Notes: generated by a model from the letters alone, not told the origin. Positions 10,068-58,496 are shown, numbered from the stretch's first letter. The stretch is DNA of 64,000 nt from Candidatus Omnitrophota bacterium (GCA_028707125.1 JAQTUX010000001.1:977493-1041492), one strand, 5' to 3'. Made by a program: numbers and translations.

Positions 10068-10724
10068 ATGATAATCGCCATAGACGGACCGGCGGGGGCA
10101 GGCAAGAGTACCGTCGCCAAAAAATTAGCCCAGAGATTGGGCTTTATTTATATTGATACCGGAGCGATGTACCGAGCAGTCACTCTGAAGCTGCTGGAGG
10201 GCCGCGTAGACATAAAAGACGAGAAGGCGGTTGTTGAGGCGGCAAGGAGCTGCAAGATCGGACTGAAGAATCCGCCCGGAGGCGGCCTCCAGGTATTTCT
10301 TGATTCAGCGGATGTTTCTCAGCAGATAAGGCAGCCGCGCATAACGGAATTCGTCTCCGATGTGGCCAGGATAAAAGAGGTAAGGTCTGTAATGCTGGGT
10401 TTGCAAAGGAAGGCGGGCGAGGGCAAAGACGCTGTTATTGACGGCAGGGATATCGGGACCGTGGTCTTTCCCGGCGCCGAGAAGAAATTTTATATTGACG
10501 CGGATTTTCAGGAGAGGGTAGAGCGGCGTTTCAAAGAGCTGGCGGCGGCAGGGCAGGATGTGAGCCGCGGCAGCGTGGAGAAAGATCTGCGTAACAGAGA
10601 TAGTATAGATTCAAACCGCGAGGTAGCGCCGTTGAAAAAGGCCGATGACGCGGTTCGTATTGACACGACGAATATGACGATAGAGGAAGTCGTCAATACT
10701 CTATTTAACCAAGTTTTAGCGTAA
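10068..10724 (+). CDS. cmk: Cytidylate kinase
   Basis: MIIAIDGPAGAGKSTVAKKLAQRLGFIYIDTGAMYRA is the canonical Cmk start. The listed ORF start at 10014 falls inside the palindrome, so ATG 10068 is preferred. Confidence 0.85.
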   Translation: MIIAIDGPAGAGKSTVAKKLAQRLGFIYIDTGAMYRAVTLKLLEGRVDIKDEKAVVEAARSCKIGLKNPPGGGLQVFLDSADVSQQIRQPRITEFVSDVARIKEVRSVMLGLQRKAGEGKDAVIDGRDIGTVVFPGAEKKFYIDADFQERVERRFKELAAAGQDVSRGSVEKDLRNRDSIDSNREVAPLKKADDAVRIDTTNMTIEEVVNTLFNQVLA

Positions 10725-10834
10725 AACGTAAAGCGAAAAGCGCAAAACTAAAGTGTAAAACTTAAAACTATATAACAAAAACTTTAAACTTTACGTTTTG
10801 GTTTTACGCTTTGCGCTTTACACTTTTCACTTTC
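10718..10834. repeat. Family-A intergenic palindromic repeat, copy 1 (cmk-lepA gap)
   Basis: agcgtaaaacgtaaagcgaaaagcgcaaaactaaagtgtaaaacttaaaacta...aaaactttaaactttacgttttggttttacgctttgcgctttacacttttc; over 95% identical to the copies at 38421 and 58383. The left end contains the cmk stop codon. Confidence 0.85.
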
Positions 10835-10837
10835 ATT

Positions 10838-12634
10838 ATGGATAAATCACTTATTCGCAACTTCAGCATAATTGCCCACATTGACCACGGTAAATCAACG
10901 CTTGCCGACAGGATCCTTGAGTTTACCGGAGCCGTGGACATGGGGCATACCAACGACCAGCTGTTGGACGATATGGACCTGGAGCGTGAGCGCGGTATCA
11001 CCATTAAGGCGTCTATGGTGAGGATAGATTACCATTCAAAGGGCGGCAGCGATTTTATATTGAATCTTATAGATACGCCCGGGCACGTTGATTTCAGCTA
11101 TGAGGTCTCAAAGTCGCTTGCCGCCTGCGAGGGCACGCTGCTTGTGGTGGATGCCACCCAGGGCATAGAGGCGCAGACAGTGGCGAATTATCTCCTGGCG
11201 AAGGAGAACCGCCTTAAGATAATACCCGTGGTCAACAAGATAGACCTGGGCAGCGCGGATATAGAGCGCACCTGCCTTCAGTTGATGGAGATGTTCCATT
11301 TCAACGAGGAAGAAATAATCCTCGCCTCCGCGAAGACCGGTGAAGGGATAGAAGAGATACTGGAAAGGGTGATCGGTTATTTTCCCGCCCCAAAAGGGAA
11401 TGAGAACGCGCCCCTCAAGGCGCTGGTGTTTGATTCGCGTTACGATACATTCAGGGGCGTCTACGTTTACGTCAAGGTGATAGACGGCAGGATCACGCCG
11501 GACCTTTCCCTGCGGTTGATGCAATCCAATAAGGTATATAAAGTTGAAGAGTTGGGGGTCTTCTATAATCTTAAGTTCGTAAAAGTAGATTCACTTGGCT
11601 GCGGCGAGGTCGGGTATATCCTGGCAAACATCCGCGACCCCGCCGAAATAGTCATAGGCGATACGCTTACCAACGAGGCCCAGCCGGCTGATTCCGTTCT
11701 ACCCGGTTACAAGAAAATGAACCCGCTTGTTTTTTGCGGCATATATCCGGTGAATGCCGGCGACTTTAACGGGCTGCGCGATGCCATAGATAAACTGAAG
11801 CTTTCCGACGCTTCCTTTATTTTTGAACCCGAGTATTCGGCTTCTTTCGGCCACGGCTTCCGCTGCGGATTTCTGGGGCTGCTGCATATGGAGATAGTCC
11901 ACGAGCGCCTGCAGAGGGAATATGACCTGAATTTAATACTCACCCTCCCCAATGTTGTCTACAAGGTGATAAACCGCAAAGGAGAGACAAAAGATGTTGA
12001 CTGCCCGCAGGAGCTGCCTGCCCCTCCCGATATACAGGAGGTCAAGGAACCGTTCGTGTCAATGATGTTCATAGTCCCGGTTGAGTCAATAGACCCTGTA
12101 TGCGAGATCGCCAAATCGCGAAGAGGTGTATATAAATCCACGGAGTTCATAGGGCAGGACAGGGTAAAGCTGATATTTGAAATGCCTTTATCCGAGATAA
12201 TCGTTGACTTTTATGATAAAATAAAGTCCATGACCAAGGGGTATGGCTCCATAGATTATGAATTTACGGATTACCGCCCCACTGAGATCGTGCGGCTTGA
12301 TATCCTGCTTAACGGCGTGATCTGCGACGCGTTTTCTTCTCTGACCCACAAAAGCAAGGCGCAGTCAAAGGGCAGGGGGATCGTTGAAAAACTTAAGGAG
12401 TTGATACCGCGCCAGCTCTTTGAGATCAGCGTCCAGGCGGCGGTGGGCTCTCAGGTGCTGGCGGCCGAGAAGATAAGGTCTGTGGGTAAACACGTGACCG
12501 CGAAGTGCTATGGCGGCGATATCACAAGAAAAAGGAAGCTTTGGGAAAAACAGAAAATGGGCAAGAAGAGGATGAAACAATTCGGCAAGGTAGAGATACC
12601 GCAGGAGGCCTTTTTGGAGGTATTAAAGATATGA
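10838..12634 (+). CDS. lepA: Elongation factor 4 (LepA)
   Basis: MDKSLIRNFSIIAHIDHGKSTLADRILE...; G domain, EF-G-like domains and the LepA C-terminus. ATG 10838 is preferred over the upstream in-repeat start. Confidence 0.9.
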   Translation: MDKSLIRNFSIIAHIDHGKSTLADRILEFTGAVDMGHTNDQLLDDMDLERERGITIKASMVRIDYHSKGGSDFILNLIDTPGHVDFSYEVSKSLAACEGTLLVVDATQGIEAQTVANYLLAKENRLKIIPVVNKIDLGSADIERTCLQLMEMFHFNEEEIILASAKTGEGIEEILERVIGYFPAPKGNENAPLKALVFDSRYDTFRGVYVYVKVIDGRITPDLSLRLMQSNKVYKVEELGVFYNLKFVKVDSLGCGEVGYILANIRDPAEIVIGDTLTNEAQPADSVLPGYKKMNPLVFCGIYPVNAGDFNGLRDAIDKLKLSDASFIFEPEYSASFGHGFRCGFLGLLHMEIVHERLQREYDLNLILTLPNVVYKVINRKGETKDVDCPQELPAPPDIQEVKEPFVSMMFIVPVESIDPVCEIAKSRRGVYKSTEFIGQDRVKLIFEMPLSEIIVDFYDKIKSMTKGYGSIDYEFTDYRPTEIVRLDILLNGVICDAFSSLTHKSKAQSKGRGIVEKLKELIPRQLFEISVQAAVGSQVLAAEKIRSVGKHVTAKCYGGDITRKRKLWEKQKMGKKRMKQFGKVEIPQEAFLEVLKI

Positions 12635-13206
12635 AAAACAGGGCCTGGCCTGTAATAAAAGAGTGGCTTGAGGCGCTGGTGGTAGCGGCAGCGATCGCTT
12701 TTCTTATCAGCACATTCATAGTTCAATTGTTCAAGATACCCACCGGCTCTATGACTCCGACGCTGCAGGCGGGCGACAGGATAGTAGTGAATAAATTCAT
12801 ATACGGGGCGAAACTCCCTTTTGTTTTTAAGAATATCCCCGCGTTGAGGCCGCCCAAGAGAGGCGACATCATGGTGTTTATTTTCCCCGGGGCGGATAAG
12901 AAGGACTATATAAAGCGCGTTATTGCCCTGCCGGGAGAGTCCGTAGAAATAAAGGGCGGTATGGTATATATAAACGGCCGGCCGCTCAAGGATGAGCCGT
13001 TTAACAGAGTGTATTATTATAGCAAAGGAGATTTTTCCAGGGAAGGGCATAAACTTGTGGTGCCGGAGAATTCTTTTTTTGTATTGGGCGATAACAGCGC
13101 CATCTCTTTTGATTCCAGATGGTGGGGGTGCGTGGACAGGAAGTATGTATTAGGCAAGGCCATAGCAATATTCTGGCCGCCGTTCAGGATAAGGATACTC
13201 AAGTGA
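12631..13206 (+). CDS. lepB: Signal peptidase I
   Basis: MKNRAWPVIKEW...TGSMTPTL..GDRIVVNK...GDNSAISFDSRWWG carries the S26 catalytic Ser/Lys motifs. ATGA overlap with the lepA stop. Confidence 0.85.
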   Translation: MKNRAWPVIKEWLEALVVAAAIAFLISTFIVQLFKIPTGSMTPTLQAGDRIVVNKFIYGAKLPFVFKNIPALRPPKRGDIMVFIFPGADKKDYIKRVIALPGESVEIKGGMVYINGRPLKDEPFNRVYYYSKGDFSREGHKLVVPENSFFVLGDNSAISFDSRWWGCVDRKYVLGKAIAIFWPPFRIRILK

Positions 13207-13766
13207 ATATCGCCAATAAGATATCTTTATTCAGGGTATTGAGCGTACCTTTCTTTATCGCCTGCCTGATCTACTATGTCCCTGAAAAGGATTACCTCAG
13301 GTTCTTCGCGCTGGGCATATTTTTCCTCGCCGTTATTTCCGACGCCATTGACGGATACATAGCCAGGAAGGCAAAATTAAAGACAAAGGCCGGCGCTATA
13401 CTTGACCCGCTTGCCGACAAATTGCTTCTTTTGAGCGCGTTTATCTGCCTGTATCTGATTAGGGGTTTCCCCGGGGGCATAAGCTTGCCGGTATGGGTCA
13501 CGCTGATGGTCGTCAGCCGCGATTGCATCATACTTTTAGGGGCGGTGGTGATTTACGTTGTAAAACAGTCCATTGAGATCGTGCCTACAAAATGGGGGAA
13601 GATCACCACCATTTTTCAGATGCTTACCGTTATGGTCGTATTATTGCAATGGAGATACTCTTTTTCTGTATGGTATATCGCTTCCGTATTTACATTGATC
13701 TCCGGGTTTGACTACGTGAGAAGAGGTTTCAAGATATTGTATCCGCCTTCGCCCGTCAATGAGTAA
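13203..13766 (+). CDS. pgsA: CDP-diacylglycerol--glycerol-3-phosphate 3-phosphatidyltransferase (CDP-alcohol phosphatidyltransferase family)
   Basis: NIANKISLFRVL...DAIDGYIARK...LDPLADKLL is the CDP-OH transferase motif D-G-x2-A-R-x8-G-x3-D-x3-D. The start is assigned to the GTG at 13203, overlapping the lepB stop. Confidence 0.75.
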   Translation: MNIANKISLFRVLSVPFFIACLIYYVPEKDYLRFFALGIFFLAVISDAIDGYIARKAKLKTKAGAILDPLADKLLLLSAFICLYLIRGFPGGISLPVWVTLMVVSRDCIILLGAVVIYVVKQSIEIVPTKWGKITTIFQMLTVMVVLLQWRYSFSVWYIASVFTLISGFDYVRRGFKILYPPSPVNE

Positions 13767-14391
13767 AGTATTCCTCGCGGTAATTATCAGTTATCTTATC
13801 GGTTCCATCCCTACCGCTTATATATTCGGCCGTCTGGTCAAAGGCGTAGATATACGCGAATACGGCTCAGGCAATGTGGGCGCCACAAACGCCTTCCGGG
13901 TCCTGGGGAAGCTGCCGGGAGCCATAGTCCTGCTTCTAGATATCTTCAAGGGGTTGTTTGTCGTTGTTTTCCTGGCGGGATATCTTATGCCTTCCGCGGA
14001 TATTTTAAGCGCGAATACGTTCAGGATCGTCACGGGCATCTGCGCTATCAGCGGGCATAACTGGACGATATTCTTGAATTTCAAGGGAGGCAAGGGTGTC
14101 GCGGCCAGCCTTGGTGTTTTGATCGGCATATGCGTAATGAACCCTTCTCTTTGGATAGTTATCGGCTTATCGTTACTAGTATGGCTGACAGTTTTTCTCC
14201 TATCGCGCATAATCTCACTTTCTTCAATAGCCGCCTCCGCGGCGCTTCCTGTATTTACCGCGCTTTTCAAATCGTCCCCGGAACTGCTTATTCTCTCTCT
14301 GTTGTTGTGCGCGCTTTCCCTTTGGCGCCACAAAGCCAATATCAAACGCCTGATTGAAGGCAGCGAGCCCCGCCTGAAAACGCTTTCATAA
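13759..14391 (+). CDS. plsY: Glycerol-3-phosphate acyltransferase PlsY (acyl-phosphate dependent)
   Basis: LIGSIPTAYIFGRL..DIREYGSGNVGATNAFRVLG is the PlsY signature. Confidence 0.85.
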   Translation: MSKVFLAVIISYLIGSIPTAYIFGRLVKGVDIREYGSGNVGATNAFRVLGKLPGAIVLLLDIFKGLFVVVFLAGYLMPSADILSANTFRIVTGICAISGHNWTIFLNFKGGKGVAASLGVLIGICVMNPSLWIVIGLSLLVWLTVFLLSRIISLSSIAASAALPVFTALFKSSPELLILSLLLCALSLWRHKANIKRLIEGSEPRLKTLS

Positions 14392-14524
14392 TCCACCTGA
14401 TATACCCTTGTTTTGCCTCTATATATAGGTATACTTTTAATAGAGATATCTATATATCCCCACCAGCCATAAAGGAGGTTTGACCCTTATGTCCGGGATC
14501 CGGCATAAGGGGATAGGGGATAAC

Positions 14525-14574
14525 GGCCGGGTTACCGCAAATTGCGACTATGCGGTGAGCCCGGCCTTTTTTTT
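14525..14574 (+). terminator. Rho-independent terminator downstream of plsY
   Basis: GGCCGGGTTACCGC...GCGGTGAGCCCGGCC imperfect stem followed by TTTTTTTT. Confidence 0.6.
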
Positions 14575-14585
14575 GAAAAAAATAC

Positions 14586-14612
14586 TTGACAAAATCCCGC
14601 TGATAAATATAA
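14586..14612 (+). promoter_or_regulatory. groESL promoter (sigma-70 type)
   Basis: TTGACA (14586-14591) followed by TGATAAATATAAT containing TATAAT (14607-12), upstream of the CIRCE element. Confidence 0.5.
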
Positions 14613-14660
14613 TAAGGACTTCAAGAGGAACAGAGGTTTCTCTTTTTTTAGGCCGTATAG

Positions 14661-14687
14661 TTAGCACTCGTAACTTTTGACTGCTAA
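14661..14687 (+). promoter_or_regulatory. CIRCE element (HrcA operator) for groESL
   Basis: TTAGCACTC-gtaactttt-GACTGCTAA against the consensus TTAGCACTC-N9-GAGTGCTAA (one mismatch), 38 nt before groES. Confidence 0.85.
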
Positions 14688-14724
14688 AATATCCTAAACA
14701 AAATCAACATAATAGGAGGTGTAC

Positions 14725-15015
14725 ATGAACATACAACCATTGGGCGACAGGGTTGTAATCAAGCCACTTGAGGCAGAGGAAAAGACCAAGGGCGGCATAG
14801 TCCTTCCTGATACCGCGAAGGAAAAACCGCAAGAGGGCAAGGTAGTCGCGGTAGGAAAAGGCAAGGTGCTTGACAGCGGCTCAACTCAGGCGCCTGAAGT
14901 AAAAGTCGGCGATAAGGTGCTCTACGGGAAATATTCCGGCACAGAGGTGACTACGAAAGACGGCGACGAACTGCTTATAATGAAGGAAGAGGATATATTG
15001 GCGATTCTCAAATAG
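14725..15015 (+). CDS. groES: Co-chaperonin GroES
   Basis: [44 protein letters not shown]; RBS AGGAGG 6 nt upstream. Confidence 0.9.
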
Positions 15016-15026
15016 GTACAATTTAA

Positions 15027-16688
<1,662 letters not shown>

Positions 16689-16718
16689 TCCCTGATCAGT
16701 AAAATCGCAGATCAAAAA

Positions 16719-16750: not shown

Positions 16751-16817
16751 TGATCACGAGGGGAGGGGTCCTGTATTATCAGGCAGCAGGGCCCTGCTGC
16801 CTCGCTACGAGATGCTA

Positions 16818-16895
16818 CCCCACACTTACGTGTGGGGAATGGCAATCCTGAGCATCTTCGGATAGCCAGATGATTCTACACACGTAAGTGTGTAG
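16818..16895 (+). repeat. Family-C double-hairpin element, copy 1 (upstream of gatC)
   Basis: CCCCACAC-ttac-GTGTGGGG aatggcaatc...gatt CTACACAC-gtaa-GTGTGTAG agga. Conserved with the copies at 42846-42914 and 46472-46491. Confidence 0.8.
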
Positions 16896-16944
16896 AGGAA
16901 AAATCATTTACTTTTCGGTGGGTGGAGGATATAATTATAGAACC

Positions 16945-29468: not shown

Positions 29469-30421
29469 AGCTGGTCAAGGAAAAATGGGCGTCCGCGATC
29501 AACGTGGTGCAGATAGGCGCCGCGAAAGAAGACGGCGGTACGCGTACGCATACTGTGAAGGCAGGCGGCGAGAGCACTCTTGCCTTCCTGGAGGAAGAGG
29601 GAGGAATTCCCCACAGGCCGCTGATCGCCTATGAGGTATGGGATATAGAACCAGGTGACTGGCCTGACGAACTGAAAAACGCCTATGGCAAGGTTTTAAA
29701 GAGCCCTCTTGATTGGGCGCTTAAATGCGTAAATGAATTCAAGGCAGGCCTGCTTTGCCTGCGCCTGCAGGGCGCGCATCCGGATTCAGGTGACAGGACT
29801 GCCGATGCCTCGGTAAAGTTAGTCAAGGAATTGCTGAAGGCGACAGGGGTCCCTCTTATAATACTGGGCTGCGGCGATGATGCTAAGGATAATCAAGTGC
29901 TTGTGTCCTGCTCTCAGGCAGCCGCCGGAGAAAGATGCCTCATAGGCGACGCTGTCCAGGAGAATTATAAGACGCTTGCCGCGGCGGTGATCGCTGACGG
30001 CCACTCCATTATCGCCGAGTCGCCCATTGATATCAATATCGCCAAACAGCTCAATATCCTCATATCGGACATGGGTGTCGCGCTTGATAAGATCGTGATA
30101 AATCCCACGATAGGGTCTTTGGGTTATGGCCTTGAATACGCCTATTCTATTATGGAAAGGGCGCGTTTGGCCGCTCTCTCGGGAGATAAAATGATGCAGA
30201 TGCCCTTTATATGTTTTGTGGGTTATGAGGCCTGGCGGGCAAAAGAGGCAAAGTCAACCCTCAAGGAAACGCCTGAATGGGGCGATGAAAAAATGCGCGC
30301 TCCTTTATGGGAGGCGTTGACCGCCAGCGCGCTCCTGCAGGCAGGGGCGGATATCCTGGTGATGCGCCACCCTATGTCTATAAAATATATCGAGCAGCAT
30401 ATAGACGAATTAATGAAATGA
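29459..30421 (+). CDS. acsD: Corrinoid iron-sulfur protein small subunit (acetyl-CoA decarbonylase/synthase delta; AcsD/CdhD)
   Basis: 320-aa TIM-barrel protein (…VPLIILGCGDDAKDNQVL...) with the size and placement of AcsD beside acsC/acsE. Confidence 0.75.
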   Translation: MGLELVKEKWASAINVVQIGAAKEDGGTRTHTVKAGGESTLAFLEEEGGIPHRPLIAYEVWDIEPGDWPDELKNAYGKVLKSPLDWALKCVNEFKAGLLCLRLQGAHPDSGDRTADASVKLVKELLKATGVPLIILGCGDDAKDNQVLVSCSQAAAGERCLIGDAVQENYKTLAAAVIADGHSIIAESPIDINIAKQLNILISDMGVALDKIVINPTIGSLGYGLEYAYSIMERARLAALSGDKMMQMPFICFVGYEAWRAKEAKSTLKETPEWGDEKMRAPLWEALTASALLQAGADILVMRHPMSIKYIEQHIDELMK

Positions 30422-30577
30422 TAAACTCTAAACTCGAAACCCTAAACTCTCAACAAACCCAAAACCCAAAACTCCAAACCCAAAACCTCACTATGATGAT
30501 TGATGTTTTGAGTTTGTGGTTTAGAGTTTGTGATTTGTTTAGTGTTTAGAGTTTAGTGTTTAGGGTTTGATTTGAGG
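30422..30577. repeat. Family-B intergenic imperfect palindrome (~155 bp), acsD-acsE gap
   Basis: Left arm of aaac-containing units (aaactctaaactcgaaaccctaaactctcaacaaacccaaaacccaaaactccaaacccaaaacctca) and a right arm that is its approximate reverse complement (tgttttgagtttgtggtttagagtttgtgatttgtttagtgtttagagtttagtgtttagggtttgatttgagg). Confidence 0.8.
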
Positions 30578-30585
30578 ATTAGAAT

Positions 30586-37259: not shown

Positions 37260-37615
37260 TATACGGCAACGGCGTAGATATAATTGAGGTCAACAGGATA
37301 AGACAGGCGGTGGAGAAATGGGGAGAGAGCTTTCTGGGCAAGGTATTCACTCAACAGGAACTGGAGTGCGCGAAAAAGAGGGGCTCGCCCTATGAACATC
37401 TGGCAGGCAGGTTTGCCGCCAAAGAGGCGGTTGCCAAGGCATTTTCCGACAATTCCATTACCTGGCGGGACATTGAGATAATAAACGATGGCAACGGCAA
37501 GCCATCCTGCAACATACTTAACGGCAAGAAAAAATATTTCCAGATACACGTTTCAATTTCTCATATAAAAAAATATGCGGTTGCCAGCGCGGTTGTTACG
37601 AAGGAACCCCAATAG
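37256..37615 (+). CDS. acpS: Holo-[acyl-carrier-protein] synthase
   Basis: MIYGNGVDIIEVNRI...GRFAAKEAVAKA is the AcpS family. Confidence 0.85.
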   Translation: MIYGNGVDIIEVNRIRQAVEKWGESFLGKVFTQQELECAKKRGSPYEHLAGRFAAKEAVAKAFSDNSITWRDIEIINDGNGKPSCNILNGKKKYFQIHVSISHIKKYAVASAVVTKEPQ

Positions 37616-38468
37616 CCATAAAGGCGATTTCGGCCGCGTATTTATTCTCGCGGCATCAAAAGGCATGACCGGAGCCGGTATACTCTGCGCGAAGGCGGCA
37701 ATGCGCGCGGGGGCAGGGCTGGTGACTCTCGGTATACCGAAGACGCAATACCCGATCGTGGCAAAGAGGCTGCTTGAGGCAATGACAGCGCCTCTGGAAG
37801 ATACTGGCGATGGGTGTTTGGCGCTGAAGGCATTAAGCCGCGTAAGGGATTTTTTAAAAAGAACTGATGTGCTGGTAATAGGCCCCGGCCTTTCGCGGCA
37901 TAAACAGACCCAGCAGCTGATACGTAAAGTCATCGCTGAATTTAACGGCAGCATGGTTGTGGATGCCGATGCTATAAATGCTTTGGCAGGGCATCTTGAT
38001 CTATTGTCTGTCCTGAAGAGCCCGCGGTCAGTAATGCTGACGCCTCATCCCGGAGAGTTTTCCCGGCTCGCGCGTATGTCCGCGGCAAAACTGCGGAAAG
38101 ACAGAAAAATATCCGCCCGGTCTTTCGCGAAGAAATATAAGATCGTTCTGGTGCTAAAAGGGCATAACAGCGTGGTCTGCGGCGAAGGCCGCTGCTACAT
38201 AAATAGGACAGGCAACCCGGGGATGGCTACTGCCGGAAGCGGCGATGTGCTTAGCGGTATGGCGGCCGCGTTTCTCGCGCAGGGGCTGGATACGTTTGAG
38301 GCGGCAAAGACAGCCGTGTATCTGCACGGGCTGGCAGGGGATCTGGCAGCCAGGGAGAAAACGCAGATATCCTTGATAGCGTCCGATATTATAGAGAAGA
38401 TCCCGGAAGCGGTTAAACAAAGCGTAAAACGTAAAGCGAAAAGCGCAAAAGTAAAGTGTAAAATTTAA
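37575..38468 (+). CDS. nnrD: ADP-dependent (S)-NAD(P)H-hydrate dehydratase (YjeF C-terminal domain)
   Basis: HKGDFGRVFILAASKGMTGAGILCAKAA...GPGLS...LTPHPGEF...GNPGMATAGSGDVLSG are carbohydrate-kinase-like Nnr2 motifs. The last ~17 aa (KQSVKRKAKSAKVKCKI) are encoded by repeat A2. Confidence 0.8.
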   Translation: MRLPARLLRRNPNSHKGDFGRVFILAASKGMTGAGILCAKAAMRAGAGLVTLGIPKTQYPIVAKRLLEAMTAPLEDTGDGCLALKALSRVRDFLKRTDVLVIGPGLSRHKQTQQLIRKVIAEFNGSMVVDADAINALAGHLDLLSVLKSPRSVMLTPHPGEFSRLARMSAAKLRKDRKISARSFAKKYKIVLVLKGHNSVVCGEGRCYINRTGNPGMATAGSGDVLSGMAAAFLAQGLDTFEAAKTAVYLHGLAGDLAAREKTQISLIASDIIEKIPEAVKQSVKRKAKSAKVKCKI

Positions 38469-38534
38469 AACTATATAACAAAAACTTTAAACTTTACGTT
38501 TTGGTTTTACGCTTTGCGCTTTACACTTTTCGCT
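38421..38534. repeat. Family-A intergenic palindromic repeat, copy 2 (nnr-recX gap; left arm in-frame with the nnr 3' end)
   Basis: agcgtaaaacgtaaagcgaaaagcgcaaaagtaaagtgtaaaatttaaaactatataacaaaaactttaaactttacgttttggttttacgctttgcgctttacacttttcgct. Confidence 0.85.
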
Positions 38535-38536
38535 AT

Positions 38537-39007
38537 TTGACATTGAATATCTCTAAGGATTATAAGTCAGCAATTAACGCTGCGCTAAGGCTGATCAGGT
38601 TCAGGCCAAGGAGCGAGAATGAAATAATATCGCGCCTTGAGGATAAGGGCTATGGAACCGCCGTTATAAAAAAGGCGGTCAAGTACCTGAAAGGCGCCGA
38701 TTATTTAAACGACGCCGAGTTCTGCAGGATATGGATCGGATCGCGAAAGGATAAGCCGTTAGGTTTCAAGAAGATCATTCAGGAGCTCAAAGAAAAGGGA
38801 GTAAAGCGGGATATTATTGAACACGCCGTTAAAGAATCCCAATGTGATTATAACGAGGGGGAAGTGATCGAGCGGCTGGTCAGCAAGAGGTTTGTCCAGG
38901 CGCACGGACCGGATAAAGGCAATATTAAAAGAAGGGTTTATTCGTTTCTCCTGCGCCGGGGATTCAGCCCGGACGCGGTCAATGAAGCGATATCTAAAAT
39001 AGAATGA
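38537..39007 (+). CDS. recX: Recombination regulator RecX
   Basis: Three-helix repeats (ALRLIRFRPRSENEIISRLEDKGY...) of the RecX family. The listed ATG 38501 lies inside repeat A2, so the start is placed at TTG 38537 and is uncertain. Confidence 0.7.
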   Translation: MTLNISKDYKSAINAALRLIRFRPRSENEIISRLEDKGYGTAVIKKAVKYLKGADYLNDAEFCRIWIGSRKDKPLGFKKIIQELKEKGVKRDIIEHAVKESQCDYNEGEVIERLVSKRFVQAHGPDKGNIKRRVYSFLLRRGFSPDAVNEAISKIE

Positions 39008-41619: not shown

Positions 41620-42839
41620 AGATAATACGCAGATACAACAGGGAACTTGAGAAGATCTACAGCCGTAATCTGATAAGGCAGAAGTCCATGCAGGAGCGCG
41701 TGCGCAAGATAATAGACGACGTCAGGCTGAACGGGGACGACGCGCTGGCAAAATATACGCGTAAATTTGACAAGGTAAAACTGCTGCCCAGGCAATTCAG
41801 GGTAGGGCCGCTGGAGATAAGCGGCGCTTATCAGAATATAAACCGGGATTTTGTTTCTAATCTCAAACTTATAATAGAGAACATAAACCGGTTCTACAAG
41901 AGGCAGATAAGAAAGAAGTGGAAGATCAAGGATTCCGACGGCGTAGAGTTGGGAGAAAAGATAGAGCCGATAGAACGCGTAGGTATTTACATACCGGCAG
42001 GCACAGCCCCGCTTGTCTCAACGGTCTATATGACAGCCGTGCCAGCGCGCATAGCAGGGGTAAAGGACATAGCGTTATTTACTCCTCCGGATGAGAACGG
42101 GAACGTTAATCCTCACATACTTGTAGTCGCGGACCTGCTTAAGGTCAATGAGATCTACAAGGTCGGGGGGGCGCAGGCGATCGCCGCCGCCAGTTTTGGC
42201 ACAAGGACCATACCGAAGGTGGATAAGATCGTAGGCCCGGGCAATGCTTACGTAACAGAGGCAAAGAGGCAGTTGTTCGGCTATGTGAATATCGATATGC
42301 TGGCAGGGCCGACAGAACTGGTTGTGATCGCCAACAGGTTCAGTAATCCCAAGTTCGTTATTGCCGACCTTAAATCGCAGATAGAGCATTCCGGCGGCAT
42401 GTCAATACTTATTACTACAAGCAGGGATCTGGCGAAGACGGCCGCGGCGCAGTTAGACGCGAAAGGGGCGATAATCCTGACAAAGAACCTGGCTGAGGCG
42501 GCAGAGATATCTAACCGCATAGCGCCGGAACACCTGGAGATCATGGTAAACAATCCCAAAAAGATCCTGAAGCTTATAAAGAACGCCGGGGCGGTATTCC
42601 TGGGGGCATATAGCCCTGTTTCGGTAGGGGATTATGTAGCCGGGCCCAGCCACGTATTGCCGACCGCCGGCTCTGCCCGGTTCTTTTCGGGGTTGTCTTT
42701 AAGCGACTTTACGAAGTCAATACACATAATTTCTTACTCCAGGAAAGCGCTTGAGGCGATAAGGCAGCCGCTTGAGGCGATCGCCGGAATTGAAAAATTG
42801 GAAAAACACATTGAGTCGGTAAAGGCGAGGTTCGAGTAG
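41616..42839 (+). CDS. hisD: Histidinol dehydrogenase
   Basis: 407 aa, HisD family (…IPAGTAPLVSTVYMTAVPARIAGV...). Confidence 0.85.
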   Translation: MKIIRRYNRELEKIYSRNLIRQKSMQERVRKIIDDVRLNGDDALAKYTRKFDKVKLLPRQFRVGPLEISGAYQNINRDFVSNLKLIIENINRFYKRQIRKKWKIKDSDGVELGEKIEPIERVGIYIPAGTAPLVSTVYMTAVPARIAGVKDIALFTPPDENGNVNPHILVVADLLKVNEIYKVGGAQAIAAASFGTRTIPKVDKIVGPGNAYVTEAKRQLFGYVNIDMLAGPTELVVIANRFSNPKFVIADLKSQIEHSGGMSILITTSRDLAKTAAAQLDAKGAIILTKNLAEAAEISNRIAPEHLEIMVNNPKKILKLIKNAGAVFLGAYSPVSVGDYVAGPSHVLPTAGSARFFSGLSLSDFTKSIHIISYSRKALEAIRQPLEAIAGIEKLEKHIESVKARFE

Positions 42840-42845
42840 AAGAGA

Positions 42846-42914
42846 CCCCACACTTACGTGTGGGGAATGACAATCTAAGCATAGCCAAAGGATTCTACAC
42901 ACGTAAGTGTGTAG
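42846..42914 (+). repeat. Family-C double-hairpin element, copy 2 (hisD-hisB gap)
   Basis: CCCCACAC-ttac-GTGTGGGG aatgacaatctaagcatagccaaaggatt CTACACAC-gtaa-GTGTGTAG agga. Confidence 0.8.
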
Positions 42915-42934
42915 AGGACACTGAAGGTGGAAAG

Positions 42935-46134: not shown

Positions 46135-46469
46135 AGTTTAAGTTAAGCGATTTGAAGTTTGATGTTTCGGGATTGATCCCGGTAATAATACAGGACTACA
46201 AAACTAAAGAAGTGCTGATGGTCGCCTATATGAACAGGGAATCACTAAGGCGGACTATCCGGCTGGGAAAGACATGTTTCTGGTCGCGTTCACGCAAGAA
46301 ATACTGGGTAAAGGGAGAGACCTCGGGACATTTTCAATATGTGAAGTCAATCGCTTATGACTGTGATGCCGACGCGTTATTGATAAGGGTGAGACAGGTT
46401 GGCGTTGCCTGCCACACAGGAAATAGAAGTTGTTTTTATAGAAAGATGGGGAATATCAAACCACGATGA
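46131..46469 (+). CDS. hisI: Phosphoribosyl-AMP cyclohydrolase
   Basis: 112 aa with GLIPVIIQD...CDADALLI..V...G.ACHTG, the HisI zinc motifs. Confidence 0.85.
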
Positions 46470-46471
46470 TA

Positions 46472-46491
46472 CTACACACGTAAGTGTGTAG
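46472..46491 (+). repeat. Family-C element, copy 3 (second hairpin only; hisI-trpE gap)
   Basis: CTACACAC-gtaa-GTGTGTAG followed by aggaaactt ATG (trpE). The upstream ggggaat remnant of the first half lies in the hisI 3' end. Confidence 0.7.
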
Positions 46492-46500
46492 AGGAAACTT

Positions 46501-48000
46501 ATGATATATCCTGACAAGAAAACATTTTTAAGGTTGAGTAAGAAGGGTAACCTGATCCCGGTCTATAAGAACATAAACGCTGACCTGGATACGCCGGTTT
46601 CCGCGTATCTTAAGGTGGCGGATGAGCCGTATTCTTTTCTTCTGGAATCGGTTGAAGGCAGAGAGAAGATAGCCAGGTTCTCTTTTCTCGGTCACGGCCC
46701 CGCGCTGGTTATTAAGCTGAAAGACAAGAAATTATGGATTTTAGACAGGCGCGGAGGATACAAGCCGCAAAAAGCCGTCAAGCTTGAGAATTGCGATCCG
46801 CTTAAGGAGATCAAAAAGATAAGCAGCCGGTTTAAATTCGTAAATCTTCCCGGCCTCCCGCGGTATTGCGGCGGATTCGTGGGGTACCTAGGATACGATA
46901 CCATAGGCCTGTTCGAGCCGCGCCTGTATGAAGGCATCAGGAAGAACAGGGACGACCTCAAGCTGCCGGATATGGCATTTATGCTCTGCGATACTGTTAC
47001 GGTATTTGACCACGCCAACCACCAGATGAAAATAGTCGTCAACGCCGACCTTTCCGCGGCAGGCACTAGAAAGGCGAAATTGGAACGCTATGATGACGCC
47101 GTCAAAACGATAAACCGGATAGAGGCCCGCCTTAATAAGCCGCTTAAAGCGGAACGCAAAGCAACAATCAGCCATAAACGCCTTAAAGTAGCGTCTAATT
47201 TCTCCAGGAAAGATTTTAAAGAAATGGTTTTGAAGGGAAAAGAGCGCATAAAGGAAGGGGATATAATACAGGTTGTCCTGTCGCAGAGGCTTAATGCCCG
47301 TGTTTATGAGAAACCGTTACATATATACAGGAAGCTGCGCAGGGTTAATCCCTCTCCCTATATGTATTATCTTAATCTCAAGGATTCTATAATCATAGGC
47401 TCTTCTCCTGAACTACTCGTGCGCTGCGAGAACGGCCTGGTAGAAACGAGGCCTATCGCGGGGACAAGGCCGCGGGGCAGGGACGCTCAAGAGGACAGCC
47501 GGCTGGAAAAAGAGCTGCTTCAGGATAAAAAAGAGCTGGCAGAACATTTAATGCTTGTCGATCTTGGCCGCAATGACCTGGGCAGGGTATGCGGGTACGG
47601 CAAGGTAAAGGTTAAGGAATTTATGCGGGTGGAGAAATATTCTCACGTTATGCACATTGTCAGCAGCGTAGCAGGATTGCTTTCGCCAAATAAGGACATT
47701 TATGATACAATAAGCGCGACTTTCCCCGCGGGTACTGTGTCGGGCAGCCCTAAGATACGGGCGATGGAAATAATCAACGAATTGGAAAACCTCAGGCGCG
47801 GCCCGTACGCGGGGGCGGTGGCTTATTTCAGTTTTTCCGGCAACCTTGACAGCTGCATTATCATAAGGACGATAATAATAAAGAACAAAACGGCCTATAT
47901 ACAGGCAGGCGCGGGCATTGTCGCCGATTCCGTGCCGGAGCGTGAATATCGCGAGACGCTGAATAAGGCCAGGGCGCTTATTGAAGCGATTAACGCGTAA
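46501..48000 (+). CDS. trpE: Anthranilate synthase component I
   Basis: 499 aa chorismate-binding enzyme (LESVEG..., GAVAYF..G, IIRT). Confidence 0.85.
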
Positions 48001-48035
48001 AGCGAAAAGCGCGAAACCAAAAAAAAGGAGAAAAG

Positions 48036-50787: not shown

Positions 50788-50799
50788 TACCCACCCGTT

Positions 50800-52686: not shown

Positions 52687-52705
52687 AATTAAACACATTG
52701 TCATA

Positions 52706-53602: not shown

Positions 53603-53614
53603 GGAGGTGAGAGA

Positions 53615-53773
53615 ATGAGCTGGAAATTATTCTGGCAGATAGTGTTGTTGATAGTGATAGCGGCGGTAGTCGCGTCTGCTGCCAAGGTCGGTATGCTGCG
53701 CTGCAAGTATATGGGCGGGTCTATGCAAATGAAGATGATGCAGGGCGGGCGCCATATGATGCCGCCTAAATAG
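53615..53773 (+). CDS. Small 52-aa membrane protein with a Met-rich C-terminus
   Basis: Strong RBS GAGGAGGTGAGAG; MSWKLFWQIVLLIVIAAVVASAAKVGMLRCKYMGGSMQMKMMQGGRHMMPPK; fills the surA-pdxA gap exactly. Confidence 0.4.
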   Translation: MSWKLFWQIVLLIVIAAVVASAAKVGMLRCKYMGGSMQMKMMQGGRHMMPPK

Positions 53774-53775
53774 AC

Positions 53776-54735
53776 ATGAGGATCAAAGTCGGTATCACGA
53801 TCGGTGATCCTTCGGGTATAGGGCCCGAAGTAACGGTAAAGGCGTTGTCATCTTCTTCAATAGATAACTCCGCTGATTTTACGATCATAGGAGACAAACA
53901 CGCCTTTACGCGCGCGGCAGGAAGGTCAACGCTCATAGAGCGCGGCAACGTTGATTTTATTGATTTAAGGAACCTGAACCGGAAAAATTTCGCTTTCGGC
54001 AAGGTGAGCGCGGAATACGGCCGCGCCTCAGTTGAGTATATCAATACCGCCGCGGATCTCATAAAAGCGGGCGCTATTGACTGCCTTGTAACCGCTCCTG
54101 TCAGCAAGGAAACTATTAACAAAGCAGGTTATAGATTCCAGGGCCACACAGAATACCTCGCGGGGCTTTTTGGGGTGAAAAAATTTCTTATGATGCTTAC
54201 CGCGGGGCCTCTACGCATAGGCCTGGTAAGCCGTCATATCCCCCTAAAGCAGGTAGCGCATAAGATCAGCAGGCAAGATGTAATAGATACAATCCTGTTT
54301 ACCCACCGGGCGCTTAAGCAACTGTTCGGTATTAAGAGTCCTGCAATCTTTGTCTGCGGCCTTAACCCGCACGCCTCTGACGCCGGCCTCATCGGCAAAG
54401 AAGAAATTACCGTTATAGAGCCGGCGGTAAAAGCCGCGTCAAAAATGGCAAAAGGCCTGAAAGGCCCGCTTCCGGCTGACAGCGCCGTGCTTCTGGCAAG
54501 CAGGACAAAGGGAAGCGGCCTGGTGGCGATGTATCACGACCAGGCATTGATACCGCTTAAGCTTATAGGCGAGAATAAAGGCGTTAATCTGACCGTGGGC
54601 CTGCCTTTTGTCAGGACGTCTCCGCTTCACGGCACCGGCTTTGATATCGCGGGAAAAAACAGGGCCGATGCCTCCTCAATGATCGAAGCCGTAAAAACCG
54701 CCATCAAATGCGCGCGTATCCTAAAAAGAGGTTAG
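53776..54735 (+). CDS. pdxA: 4-hydroxythreonine-4-phosphate dehydrogenase
   Basis: MRIKVGITIGDPSGIGPEV..., plus HTEYLAG and the HDQAL/H-x-GT metal ligands. Confidence 0.9.
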   Translation: MRIKVGITIGDPSGIGPEVTVKALSSSSIDNSADFTIIGDKHAFTRAAGRSTLIERGNVDFIDLRNLNRKNFAFGKVSAEYGRASVEYINTAADLIKAGAIDCLVTAPVSKETINKAGYRFQGHTEYLAGLFGVKKFLMMLTAGPLRIGLVSRHIPLKQVAHKISRQDVIDTILFTHRALKQLFGIKSPAIFVCGLNPHASDAGLIGKEEITVIEPAVKAASKMAKGLKGPLPADSAVLLASRTKGSGLVAMYHDQALIPLKLIGENKGVNLTVGLPFVRTSPLHGTGFDIAGKNRADASSMIEAVKTAIKCARILKRG

Positions 54736-55520
54736 GCCAGAATTTCCTGGTTGAGAAGAATATCAGGAAAAAGATACTGGATATCTGTTCTTTTAAGCAG
54801 GGCGATACCGTATTGGAGATCGGCGCGGGCAGGGGAGAGATGACCTGTCTGATCGCGCCGCTGGTAAAACGGCTGATCGCCGTAGAGTTTGACAGAGATC
54901 TATGCGAAGGCCTGAAACCACGGCTGAAAGAATTCGGCAATGTTGAATTGATATGCGGCGATATCTTAAAAGTAAATATCGCCGGCCTGGGTAAGGGTAA
55001 ACGCATAAAAGTATTCGGCAACATACCCTATTATCTCACCACCCCCATCATAATCCACCTTGTCAAACACAAGAAGCATATCAGTAATGTCTATTTGACC
55101 GTGCAAAAGGAATTCGCGCGGCGCATAGTCGCAAAACCCGGCTCAAAAGATTACAGCTCATTCAGTATTTACTGCGGTTATTACCTGATGCCGCGTCTTG
55201 ACTTTGTTATCTCCAGGGGGTGTTTCTACCCTGTCCCTAAAGTAGATTCGGCGTTTTTGAATATTGAAGTAAGGAGAAGGCCTCCTTGCATAGCCGGCAA
55301 TGAGGAGTTTTTCTTTAAAATTGTCAGAGCCGCCTTTAACCAGCGCAGGAAAACCCTGAAAAACTCCCTCAAGAAGATCATCGATCCCGTGGAACTATCT
55401 TCAATTCTGGCAAAACGCGGCCTGAGGCCGGATATAAGAGCCGAGAAGTTAAGCATAGACGATTTCGCCTATATAAGCAGGAAATTTTTGACCCAGAAAA
55501 AAGATATACGAATATGTTGA
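54708..55520 (+). CDS. rsmA: 16S rRNA (adenine1518/1519-N6)-dimethyltransferase RsmA/KsgA
   Basis: KKRLGQNFLVEKNI....VLEIGAGRGEMT...NIPY are KsgA motifs. Confidence 0.9.
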   Translation: MRAYPKKRLGQNFLVEKNIRKKILDICSFKQGDTVLEIGAGRGEMTCLIAPLVKRLIAVEFDRDLCEGLKPRLKEFGNVELICGDILKVNIAGLGKGKRIKVFGNIPYYLTTPIIIHLVKHKKHISNVYLTVQKEFARRIVAKPGSKDYSSFSIYCGYYLMPRLDFVISRGCFYPVPKVDSAFLNIEVRRRPPCIAGNEEFFFKIVRAAFNQRRKTLKNSLKKIIDPVELSSILAKRGLRPDIRAEKLSIDDFAYISRKFLTQKKDIRIC

Positions 55521-55545
55521 CAACCTGCCATAAATCGTATATAAT
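55517..55545 (+). promoter_or_regulatory. Candidate sigma-70 promoter for the IMPDH-like/guaA pair
   Basis: TTGACA (overlapping the rsmA stop), a 17-nt spacer, then TATAAT (55540-45). Confidence 0.45.
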
Positions 55546-55605
55546 TTCTCATCGGTAATTCCGGTATTTTTTCACATAAATATCTGCAAACAAAGGGGTT
55601 AACAA

Positions 55606-56766
55606 ATGGGCGAGTGGATTGGCATTAACAAGCGGGCAAGGAAATGTTACGGGTTTGATGATGTGGCGCTGGTGCCGGGCATGGTTACGGTCAACCCGAA
55701 TGAGGTAGACGCGTCTCTTAAGATCGCCGGAAAGACATATAAGATCCCGATCATGGCGGCGGCAATGGACGGCGTGGTTGATGTGAAATTCGCGGTTGAA
55801 ATGTCGCGGCTGGGCGGCCTGGCCGTCCTTAATCTTGACGGCGTGCAGACCCGCTATGAGAAGCCCGATGAGATCTTAAATAAGATCGCCAAGGCCTCCG
55901 TTGAAGAGGCGACGCATCTTGTCCAGAGTTTATATCTTGAGCCGGTAAAAGAAAAACTCATAGGCGAGCGCGTTAAAGACATAAAAAAGCAGAAAGGCAC
56001 GGCCCTGGTAAGCTGCATACCCGCTAACGCGGAGCGTTTCGCGAAGATCGCGCAGGAGGCGGGCGCGGATTTCTTTGTGGTCCAATCCACAGTTACGAGC
56101 ACGCGGCATATGGCCAGGGAATACAAGGCGCTTGACCTGCATAAGTTCTGTAAAGAAACGAAGATCCCCGTCATTATCGGCAACTGCGTAACATACGAGG
56201 TAACATTAGAGCTGCTTGAGACCGGCGCTGCCGGCCTGCTTGTAGGCATAGGGCCGGGCGCTGCCTGCACCACAAGAGGCGTGTTAGGCATAGGCGTGCC
56301 TCAGGTAACTGCCACGTTAGATTGCGCCGCCGCGAGGGATTTCCATTATAAGAGGACAGGCAATTATATACCTGTTATTACTGACGGCGGAATGAGGATA
56401 GGCGGAGAGATCTGCAAGGCGTTTGCCGCCGGAGCCGACGCCGTGATGGTAGGGTCGGCGTTTGCCAAGGCAAAAGAGGCGCCGGGCAGGGGCTTCCACT
56501 GGGGCATGGCAACTTCAAACGTGAACCTGCCGCGCGGTACCCGCGTAAAAGTAGGGACCACCGGAACACTTGAAGAGATACTGTTCGGACCTGCCAAGGT
56601 TGATGACGGCTCACAAAACCTGATGGGAGCGCTTAAGACATCAATGGGTTCGTTAGGGGCCGCCAGCGTAAAACAGATGCACGACGTAGAGATCATAATC
56701 GCGCCTTCCATACAGACGGAAGGAAAGATATTTCAGGTAGGCCAGAGAGTGGGGATGGGCAAATGA
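55606..56766 (+). CDS. IMP dehydrogenase / GMP reductase family protein lacking the CBS subdomain
   Basis: FDDVALVPG..., [11 protein letters not shown], catalytic-loop [18 protein letters not shown], and the flap region MGSLGAASV; 386 aa versus ~490 for canonical GuaB; adjacent to guaA. Confidence 0.7.
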
Positions 56767-58379
56767 AAAAGAAAATAAAATCCAACCGGCTGAAAATGAT
56801 AAAACGTTATGCCAGAAGCAAGCCGTCCATTCCGGTAAAGCAGATGCGGCCGATACTTGTCCTGGATTTCGGCTCTCAATACACACAGTTGATCGCCCGG
56901 CGGATACGCGAGAACAGGGTATTCAGCAGGATAATCCCTTATAATACACCCGCGGAGGAAATCAAAAAGCTTAACCCATACGGCCTGATTCTTTCAGGAG
57001 GCCCCGCTTCGGTCTACGAAAAGGATGTCCCGCTTCCAGATAAAAAGATATTTCAGTTAGGCATACCTGTTCTGGGCATATGCTACGGCATGCAGGCGAT
57101 CGCGCGCATCCTGGGCGGCAAGGTAAAAAGCGCGACCAACAGGGAATACGGCAAGGCGGAGTTGTTCATAGACAGCATGAAGGACCTGTTTTACGAAATG
57201 CCGGGCAATCTCAGCTGCTGGATGAGCCACGGCGACCTGCTCACGAAACTGCCTCCCGGTTTTGTCAGTATCGCGCATACGATGAATTCCCGGGTAGCCG
57301 CCATAGCCAACAGGCAGAGGAAGATCTACGGCGTGCAGTTTCACCCGGAAGTCATGCATACCCAGAAGGGCGCGGAGATCCTGGGGAATTTTGTTTATAA
57401 GATCTGCGGCGGCCGCACAAACTGGATCATCGGCTCGTTTATAAAGCGCGCGGTGGAAGACATAAAAGCGGCCGTGGGAAAGAAAAAGGCGGTGCTGGGC
57501 TTAAGCGGCGGCGTGGATTCTTCGGTTGCCGCGGTGCTTGTGCACCGCGCTATAGGAAAAAATTTGAAGTGTATCTTCATAGACAACGGCCTGCTGCGCA
57601 AGGATGAGCCGCAGCAGGTAAAAAAGACCTTCAAGGAAAACTTCAAGATGAACGTAAGCTTTATAGACGCGTCCAGGCGCTTCCTTGATAAATTAAAGGG
57701 AGTGGTTGACCCGGAAGAAAAACGCAAGATCATAGGCAATGAATTCATAAAGGTATTTGAACATGAGGCGGCAAGGGCCAAACATGTTGAGTTTTTCGCT
57801 CAAGGCACGATCTATCCTGACGTAATAGAATCACGGTCCGCCTTTGGCGGCCCGTCCGCGAGAATAAAGACGCACCACAACGTAGGCGGGCTTCCGGAAC
57901 ACATGAAGCTGAAACTCGTTGAGCCGCTGAAGGACCTGTTCAAGGATGAGGTGCGGCAATTAGGCAGGGAATTAGGCATACCCGACCCCATCCTTCAAAG
58001 ACAGCCGTTCCCGGGGCCCGGGATGGCGGTAAGGGTCATCGGCGAGGTAACCGCGGACAGGATAAGGATCCTGCAGGAGGTAGACCGGCGCCTGCTTGAA
58101 GAAATAAGGGCGGCCGGGCTGTACGAACAAATATGGCAGTCCTTCGCGGTGCTTTTGCCGATAAAGAGCGTCGGCGTCATGGGCGATCAGCGTTCCTATG
58201 AGAACGTGGTCGCCATACGCTGCGTCACAAGCAACGACGGAATGACCGCGGACTGGGTGCCTTTGCCTTACGAGCTGCTCGGAAAGATATCCAACCGCAT
58301 CATCAATGAAGTAAAGGGCGTGAACCGGGTAGTGTACGACATTTCCTCAAAGCCTCCGGCTACGATTGAGTGGGAATAA
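56763..58379 (+). CDS. guaA: GMP synthase (glutamine-hydrolysing)
   Basis: GATase ([20 protein letters not shown]...GICYGMQ), a PP-loop SGGVDSSV, and a C-terminal dimerisation domain ending IEWE. Confidence 0.9.
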
Positions 58380-58382
58380 ATA

Positions 58383-58496
58383 AGCGTAAAACGTAAAGCG
58401 AAAAGCGCAAAACTAAAGTGTAAAACTTAAAACTAACAAACAAAAACTTTAAACTTTACGTTTTGGTTTTACGCTTTGCGCTTTACACTTTTCGCT
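58383..58496. repeat. Family-A intergenic palindromic repeat, copy 3 (guaA-dnaE gap)
   Basis: agcgtaaaacgtaaagcgaaaagcgcaaaactaaagtgtaaaacttaaaactaacaaacaaaaactttaaactttacgttttggttttacgctttgcgctttacacttttcgct. Confidence 0.85.

Follow-up and report, generated by a model that had tools for sequence, protein, structure and literature searches.

A dispersed palindromic repeat at gene junctions of a Candidatus Omnitrophota bacterium, a candidate MITE-like insertion family

In a 64,000-nt stretch of DNA from a Candidatus Omnitrophota bacterium (GCA_028707125.1, JAQTUX010000001.1:977493-1041492; hereafter the window), the junctions cmk/lepA, nnr/recX, and guaA/dnaE each carry a nearly identical palindrome of about 115 nt, here called Family A, and the question arises as to whether this sequence is a mobile repeat, a hairpin retained by the host for its RNA, a terminator, or a product of local DNA synthesis. 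[quoted passage not shown] The explanation favored here, with a probability of roughly 0.55, is that Family A is a non-coding, non-autonomous, MITE-like palindromic intergenic repeat whose copies multiplied in this Omnitrophota lineage through insertion. The family would be new and as yet without a name, though of a type already well known, akin to ERIC/IRU, Correia/NEMIS, and RUP elements; in the literature, no paper on the Family A sequence or on Omnitrophota repeats was found.

The three copies in the window, each 114–117 nt in length, were aligned without gaps over 114 nt, and copies 2 and 3 were 97% and 96% identical to copy 1, respectively, in line with the value of over 95% given in the earlier note. 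In register, the copies span 10718-10831(34), 38421-38534(37), and 58383-58496(99), and the identity dropped sharply at both ends. At this level of identity, the copies are recent. The left-arm 29-mer GCGTAAAACGTAAAGCGAAAAGCGCAAAA was found three times as an exact match in the window, compared with none in 100 shuffles. In addition, a solo left end follows trpE. Previously noted as a 24-nt fragment, it proved to be real but to start one base away (47994, 25 nt); it agreed with the Family A left end at 27 of 31 positions (87%) and was also recovered as a weak nhmmer match to the Family A profile (47991-48021). All copies and the fragment reside on the + strand, each between the stop of one housekeeping gene and the start of the next in the same direction, and family matches confirmed the names already assigned to these genes (cmk/lepA, nnr/recX, guaA/dnaE, and trpE upstream of the fragment).

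The architecture was the same as that described before. The left arm consists of the A-rich units GCGTAAAA CGTAAA GCGAAAA GCGCAAAA CTAAAG TGTAAAA CTTAAAA, followed by an AT-rich center and an arm of T-rich units. The arms, 44 nt each, showed 70–73% complementarity without gaps, with AGCG...CGCT at the termini. As RNA, either strand was predicted to fold into an imperfect A/U-rich hairpin of ~40 bp with a minimum free energy of −33 to −41 kcal/mol and z values of −4.8 to −5.8 (copy 1, −32.8 kcal/mol and z −4.9; copy 2, −35.7 kcal/mol and z −4.8; copy 3, −37.8 kcal/mol and z −5.8), and none of 200 shuffles folded as well. In both orientations, the element contains TAA stops in all three frames within a span of 46 nt, and the T-rich right arm has no stop codon in the sense direction. 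Prokaryotic MITEs measure ~50–500 bp and have no coding capacity (PMC10969869); of the features expected of them, Family A exhibited small size, lack of coding sequence, terminal inverted repeats, several dispersed copies, and empty orthologous sites.

The empty sites were found at all three junctions. In three syntenic Omnitrophota with LepA proteins 70–80% identical to that of the window, which share the gene string aminotransferase, DAHP synthase, tyrA, cmk, lepA, lepB, pgsA, and plsY, a single nucleotide lies between cmk and lepA in L049, the two genes share 8 nt in L059 and L060, and no element is present. The guaA/dnaE adjacency was kept in five relatives, three of which have hairpin-free spacers of 41 nt (L053), 30 nt (L055), and 28 nt (L057); around the copy 3 insertion point, L053 has the same flanking sequences as the window, GGGAATAAATAA and CAATAATGCC. 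At nnr/recX, two contigs of one further relative (L051/L052; RecX 71% identical) read ...CGGTTAAGAA-ATG and appear to lack an element, over an upstream sequence of only 10 nt, and this CGGTTAAGAA resembles the GCGGTTAAACAA directly 5' of copy 2. Furthermore, when a Family A profile was run over ~85 kb from six related Omnitrophota loci (L049, L053-L058), it detected none, compared with three copies in the 64-kb window. Because the three junctions are empty in syntenic relatives, the Family A copies are derived insertions and not conserved regulatory DNA. The look at related genomes proposed in the earlier note thus bore out its view of a dispersed repeat rather than ordinary or locus-specific DNA, and the opposite pattern it had named, namely restriction to the three loci with conservation there, was not what was encountered, since the sites are empty and a homologue exists elsewhere.

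For these reasons, hardly any credence can be given to the idea that Family A is regulatory DNA peculiar to its loci or belongs to one of the known families of structured RNA. Its intergenic position, and nothing further, is in keeping with that idea; the sites are empty in relatives, one and the same sequence precedes three unrelated genes, and there was no Rfam match for Family A at the gathering threshold. At that threshold, only RNase P RNA and tRNAs were detected in the window, and below it only eukaryotic microRNA-precursor models appeared, the best at 37.9 bits against a cut-off of 89 and all at most 38 against at least 57.

As an observation on the same junction, contigs of three close relatives (L050, L051, and L052; RecX 93% and 71% identical) begin either right at the recX start or no more than 10 nt from it, and two independent assemblies begin at the same base near recX, which suggests a repeat-caused assembly break or an insertion polymorphism at this position.

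The closest homologue of Family A was located in another Omnitrophota genome bin (L009), with 84% identity over 106 nt, at a different junction: it lies between nifU-like and nifS-like genes, is inverted relative to them, and likewise abuts a TAA stop. This homologue bears on an origin in situ, by slippage of ~7-nt units and fold-back (template-switch) synthesis, in which the copies would be kept alike by gene conversion and not by transposition. Such an origin would account for arms made of short-unit arrays (GCGAAAA, GCGCAAAA, and CGTAAAA), for a related ~150-nt family whose right arms hold the same units in differing order, for orthologous loci of related strains that share the left end and have wholly different interiors (L014 vs. 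L022/L048), and for the many unrelated unit types in these genomes. It fits poorly, however, with three copies so nearly identical over 114 nt, having sharp common ends at unlinked junctions 20–28 kb apart, and with a homologous copy at a different junction of another genome. The nearly identical copies and the L009 homologue both require that whole units were copied to new sites. Gene conversion depends on a pre-existing homologous target, and an origin in situ is regarded as improbable.

Insertion at a stop codon had been put forward as a feature of the elements, and the details of the junctions (Table 1) allowed this to be refined. The right ends of Family A lie 2–8 nt 5' of the downstream start codons. 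The genes cmk, nnr, and trpE end at a stop that the element itself contributes; that of guaA is native. The junctions differ in detail from the rule that the first TAA of the left end falls at or near the upstream stop: the cmk stop is that TAA, the guaA stop lies 4 nt before copy 3, and the trpE stop is inside the fragment. The nnr open reading frame (ORF) extends 47 nt into copy 2 and thereby gains 15 extra Lys-rich residues, and the TIGR00196 (NAD(P)H-hydrate dehydratase) match stops at residue 282 of the 297 residues of Nnr.

As a targeting rule, insertion exactly at the stop codon could not be upheld, since the neighboring genes ancestrally overlap or abut and two of the three copies as well as the fragment bring their own stop. 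Where neighbors overlap or abut, a tolerated insertion has to fall at the stop, in the last bases before the downstream start; and with stops in all frames within 46 nt, the upstream ORF is closed after at most 15 extra codons while the downstream start is left untouched. The stop-codon position of Family A is therefore explained by selection without targeting. The pattern recurs in other genomes, where crude ORF calls placed the stop no more than 15 nt away from the first pair of the stem in ~10 of 16 clear co-directional cases, and the ORF entered the left arm by 35–51 nt in 5 more. Truncation of Cmk by the insertion was considered and rejected, as it is true only relative to L049 and the C-terminus of Cmk is equally short in L060.

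A consensus scan revealed no promoter or terminator consensus in any Family A copy, and the gene strings are contiguous in relatives, so that the operon transcript should read through the element. Other parts of the window do contain TTGACA/TATAAT promoters and canonical terminators, the latter with a GC stem and U tail, e.g., after 752 and after 16688. An intrinsic (Rho-independent) terminator or attenuator between operons, a role entertained in the earlier note, is consequently very improbable. The 3' arm of the hairpin is a series of U3-U5 runs, and in other genomes the elements lie 3' of genes, sometimes between convergent ones, as would be expected of a terminator; nevertheless, no copy contains a terminator-like site, the stem being A/U-rich with a loop of 16–23 nt and no U-tract past it, in a window where canonical GC-stem/U-tail terminators are present. 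Moreover, the elements sit inside tightly packed gene strings, directly 5' of lepA and dnaE without a promoter consensus, and interrupt strings that are contiguous or overlapping in relatives.

On the insertion reading, elements at these junctions would survive since they are harmless there. The element would be transcribed within polycistronic mRNA and would fold there into a ~40-bp A/U-rich hairpin. By analogy with Correia-containing mRNAs, this hairpin may serve as an RNase III-type substrate and possibly as a barrier to 3' exonucleases, and the most likely effect would be to uncouple the cistrons on its two sides from each other in stability or translation. In the known cases, Correia element hairpins in co-transcribed mRNA are cut by RNase III, and ERIC exposes an RNase E site and alters mRNA decay (PMC10969869). 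A dedicated host function for Family A probably does not exist.

Hairpins of like design were present at other junctions. In the window, the tyrA/cmk gap (9930-10060) is occupied by a ~130-nt hairpin with a CCAAT-type left arm and an ATTGG-type right arm, unrelated to Family A in sequence, and the same genes overlap by 4 nt (L059 and L060) or lie 51 nt apart (L049) in relatives. The acsD/acsE gap (30411-30585) holds a hairpin ~175 nt long whose units are of the AAAC(C) and GTTT types. In L049, the closest syntenic relative, a 206-nt CCAAT-type hairpin (3178-3383) resides at yebC/ruvC, where the window has a gap of 11 nt. At guaA/dnaE, two relatives carry hairpins unrelated to Family A, one of 75 nt with AAGGTC/GACCTT units and −34.6 kcal/mol (L054, 5926-6000) and a weaker one of 104 nt of CACAAG type (L058, 3897-4000). 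Hairpins have thus been gained repeatedly and independently at the guaA/dnaE junction, and unit-array hairpins come and go at junctions.

Further details of these hairpins are recorded here in their own right. The acsD/acsE hairpin lies between the acetyl-CoA synthase delta subunit and methyltransferase genes of a Wood-Ljungdahl cluster, with a left arm that has a great deal of C and little G. L049 has a hairpin of opposite polarity at 7304-7415, GTTAGTTCATAG ... CTATGAACTAAAC. Other unit types were seen as hairpins or arrays, namely TTAGGG/CCCTAA-like, ATGAAC/GTTCAT, and TAGCGTA/TACGCTA heptamers, some of them nested in A-unit/T-unit stems (L002, 1100-1230 and 2505-2640; L004, 3245-3420; L020, 6125-6260; L036, 655-780).

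The recurrence of hairpins leads to the proposal that Family A is a host-selected intercistronic RNA hairpin, a form of operon punctuation acting as an RNase III or stability site or preserving translational coupling through proximity of stop and start, in which case its spread would be recruitment and not parasitism. This proposal is considered unlikely. In its favor, the stem of copies 1 and 3 has the stop codon at one foot and the start codon at the other, the unrelated guaA/dnaE hairpins recur in two other Omnitrophota and the two same-design hairpins in the window, the motif favors the coding strand, and the elements follow genes, with clear divergent contexts few or absent. On the other hand, no hairpin exists in 3 of 6 genomes at guaA/dnaE or in 3 of 3 at cmk/lepA, from which it follows that the hairpin is not required; no covariation was seen among four aligned sequences; and the L009 element is inverted with respect to its flanking genes. 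The lack of a Shine-Dalgarno sequence after the elements carries no information on the matter, because only 24 of 48 window genes have one and dnaE lacks one in relatives with or without a hairpin. For the same reason, since dnaE has none in element-free relatives, the candidate explanation that the element removes the Shine-Dalgarno sequence so that the hairpin must drive translation was discarded.

The left end of Family A extends well beyond this lineage, and the designation genome-specific in the earlier note was therefore dropped. A 21-nt piece of the left end, for which ~0.5 matches would be expected by chance at equal base frequencies, was exact in 11 stretches from 8 species-representative genome bins of at least five labelled phyla: Omnitrophota (2), Aerophobetes, Patescibacteria, Phoenicimicrobium (a member of Atribacterota), 'Clostridia', and unclassified (2). 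Caution is due here, since bins may be mislabelled: one and the same family is present in the Aerophobetes and 'Clostridia' bins, and Syntrophales is the label of a 93% RecX homologue. A 23-nt piece was exact in 37 metagenome stretches with GC contents of 34 to 61%, about half of them from one 40%-GC genome bearing the ~150-nt family. Most matches were hairpins of 74–313 nt composed of the shared left end, a T-unit right arm, and an unrelated interior, and some were solo left ends. By-catch elements in the same loci had related units in shuffled order, indicating that the exact 24-mer is the commonest form of a shared unit vocabulary rather than a fixed site. In these other genomes, the elements sit after genes in co-directional or convergent arrangement, and clear divergent contexts are few or absent.

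Two individual cases were set apart. In a bin labelled Patescibacteria (L008, 3830-4100, on the minus strand of that locus), the element is very lopsided, with a left end of 25 nt and then ~250 nt of the T-rich units TTTACGC, TTTTCGC, and TTTGCGC. In L039 and L043, a solo left-end motif without a right arm stands between two tRNA-like sequences; the motif is thus also found outside protein-gene junctions.

This wide distribution raises the further idea that Family A belongs, as one branch, to a large superfamily, so far undescribed, of hairpins built from unit arrays, with ~7-nt units and a conserved ~24–31-nt end (AGCGnArAACGTAAAGCGAAAAGCGCAAAAC), that serves as intercistronic punctuation; we regard it as distinctly unlikely. 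Such a superfamily would extend over anaerobic lineages not yet cultured, among them Omnitrophota, Aerophobetes, Atribacterota, and Patescibacteria, and its members would not be parasites only but would be inserted or retained precisely between a stop and the next start, punctuating very long co-directional operons. The stem would join stop and start, or an upstream ribosome would melt the stem and unmask the start, either of which would keep coupling; alternatively, it would act as an RNase III site. Spread would occur without target duplication and with a coding-strand bias.

Returning to the preferred reading of a repeat spread by insertion, several observations weigh against it. The copy count covers the 64-kb window, a part of the source genome. 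No consistent target-site duplication was found: TAA/TTA is present at both ends of copy 3 and the L009 element, not of copies 1 and 2, and is indistinguishable from chance in the A/T-rich context of stop codons. No autonomous parent element or transposase was found in the window or in the ~50 motif-bearing loci, the widest arm spacing being ~310 nt, and there was no transposase domain among the tested proteins of the 64-kb window. By crude ORF calls, ~17 of 20 co-directional contexts, counted without redundancy, had the exact motif on the coding strand, which counts against a purely DNA-level, orientation-blind element because such an element does not predict a bias; the bias could result from replication-linked single-strand transposition or from RNA-level selection. 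Transcription of the element, its fold in vivo, and its cleavage by RNase III are predictions. In an alignment of only four similar sequences, just 1 compensatory pair was seen among 35, several pairs were broken in L009, and the covariation term was +0.38. With only 1 of 35 pairs compensatory, nothing shows selection on the structure of Family A; the wider family could not be reliably aligned for covariation, because its interiors are not of one length and more than one pairing register is open to the low-complexity arms. The term MITE-like accordingly stands in the sense of an insertion-type dispersed repeat, whereas strict membership among MITEs lacks a consistent duplication and a found parent transposase. 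Viral contigs, phage records, and plasmids yielded no Family A match.

The lack of a consistent duplication is also what would be expected if Family A were of the repetitive extragenic palindromic (REP)/REPIN type, moved as a single-stranded hairpin by a RAYT, an IS200/IS605-like tyrosine transposase, for a RAYT-type mechanism leaves no target duplication and is biased by replication direction. The length of the hairpin is REPIN-like (~110 nt), and all copies in the window point the same way, the GC skew of that strand being +0.12. REPINs are hairpin-forming REP doublets spread by RAYTs (PMC3116915). The arms of Family A are not themselves short palindromic REP units, however, a conserved GTAG head is lacking, and no Y1 transposase domain was present among the genes of the 64-kb window, so this relationship is judged quite improbable.

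The coordinates of the elements and of the codons next to them are summarized in Table 1. The ~64 protein genes of the window are all on the + strand, with mostly tiny gaps or overlaps of a few bases, as are RNase P RNA (2422-2878) and three tRNAs; every gene tested was a housekeeping gene, and the skews (GC +0.12 and AT +0.10) persist throughout. Meanwhile, a second repeat family of short GC hairpins, CCCCACACTTACGTGTGGGG and CTACACACGTAAGTGTGTAG, was observed at 16810-16905, 42838-42918, and 46445-46495, upstream of gatC, hisB, and trpE, and the CTACACACGTAAGTGTGTAG hairpin leads directly into an AGGA Shine-Dalgarno sequence. The region 53603-53775, listed as intergenic, contains a Shine-Dalgarno sequence and a short ORF (MSWKLFWQIVLL...), probably encoding a small membrane protein below the 80-aa ORF cut-off.

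Table 1. Family A elements of the window and the start and stop codons at their junctions.
Feature	Position	Strand	Remarks
Family A copy 1	10718-10834	+	cmk/lepA gap; left A-unit arm ~10718-10766, AT-rich loop 10767-10789, right T-unit arm 10790-10833
Family A copy 2	38421-38537	+	nnr/recX gap
Family A copy 3	58383-58499	+	guaA/dnaE gap; arms 58392-58431 and 58455-58494; AGCG/CGCT pair at termini
Solo left-end fragment CGCGTAAAGCGAAAAGCGCGAAACC	47994-48018	+	trpE/rpsP gap; without right arm; rpsP Shine-Dalgarno follows
cmk stop TAA	10722-10724	+	first TAA of the element (GCG TAA); cmk ORF 10014-10724; Cmk family match
lepA start ATG	10838-10840	+	4-6 nt past right end of copy 1; N-terminus MDKSLIRNF vs. 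MDKNLIRNF in L049; TIGR01393 match
nnr tail, 15 codons, VKRKAKSAKVKCKI + stop	38424-38468	+	element-encoded; nnr ORF 37575-38468
nnr stop TAA	38466-38468	+	near top of left arm of copy 2
Probable recX start TTG	38537	+	one of the starts lying 2–8 nt past a right end (copy 2)
trpE stop TAA	47998-48000	+	inside the fragment
Native guaA stop, after ...IEWE	58377-58379	+	4 nt 5' of copy 3; GGGAATAA end common to all relatives
dnaE start ATG	58505-58507	+	8 nt beyond conserved block of copy 3; ATGCC start also in relatives

The main interest of Family A lies in an end motif common to bins of several labelled phyla and in the recurring unit-array design of the hairpins. The shared end and the many hairpins of the same plan would reflect either a cross-phylum exchange of small mobile DNA, as in anoxic sediments and groundwater, or a common process or selection that shapes the intergenic DNA of streamlined genomes. 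If the hairpins are indeed devices for RNA processing or coupling, they would help to explain the expression of very long strings of genes on a single strand. For annotation, Family A matters in that it supplies or shifts stops (cmk, nnr, and trpE), lengthens Nnr, and separates genes that overlap in relatives; for assembly, the relatives' contigs ending at the recX junction point to repeats that may fragment assemblies; and rapid gain and loss at fixed junctions could provide markers to tell strains apart within Omnitrophota, of which few members have been cultured.

Among known systems, Correia/NEMIS elements, the Neisseria MITEs of 100–155 bp, resemble Family A in size, non-coding nature, long inverted ends, a hairpin in the transcript, location between or next to genes, and presence or absence that varies between related genomes. 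Their sequence is unrelated, and the arms of Family A are instead arrays of ~7-nt A-rich and T-rich units. Correia elements have a TA target duplication, an integration host factor (IHF) site, and promoter-like ends, whereas Family A displays neither the TA duplication nor a promoter consensus. ERIC/IRU (127 bp, enterobacteria) and the pneumococcal RUP, BOX, and SPRITE elements are likewise imperfect palindromes of ~100–130 bp in transcribed intergenic DNA, often just past stops; they too are unrelated in sequence, and each is confined to one bacterial group, in contrast to the Family A end motif with its several labelled phyla.

REP/REPIN elements share with Family A the character of extragenic, multi-copy hairpins after genes, the lack of target duplication, and roughly the same length. 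REP units are GC-rich palindromes of ~20–35 nt arranged as inverted doublets with a GTAG-type 5' head, and every family of them has a RAYT gene beside it; neither such doublets of short GC-rich palindromes nor an adjacent RAYT gene was seen in the window. Cyanobacterial STRR heptamer repeats and small dispersed repeats, reportedly described by Mazel et al. in 1990 and by Elhai et al. in 2008, are said to form intergenic arrays of ~7-nt units, often inverted to yield hairpins, with many unit types and fast turnover, much as found here; they belong to another phylum and consist of other units, and Family A differs in being a discrete, sharp-ended 114-nt unit copied intact. Finally, Rickettsia palindromic elements (RPE) are palindromes of ~100–150 bp through which ORFs read, similar to the 15 residues that copy 2 adds to Nnr; RPE typically lie in-frame within genes, whereas Family A resides at gene ends and closes the ORF within 15 codons.

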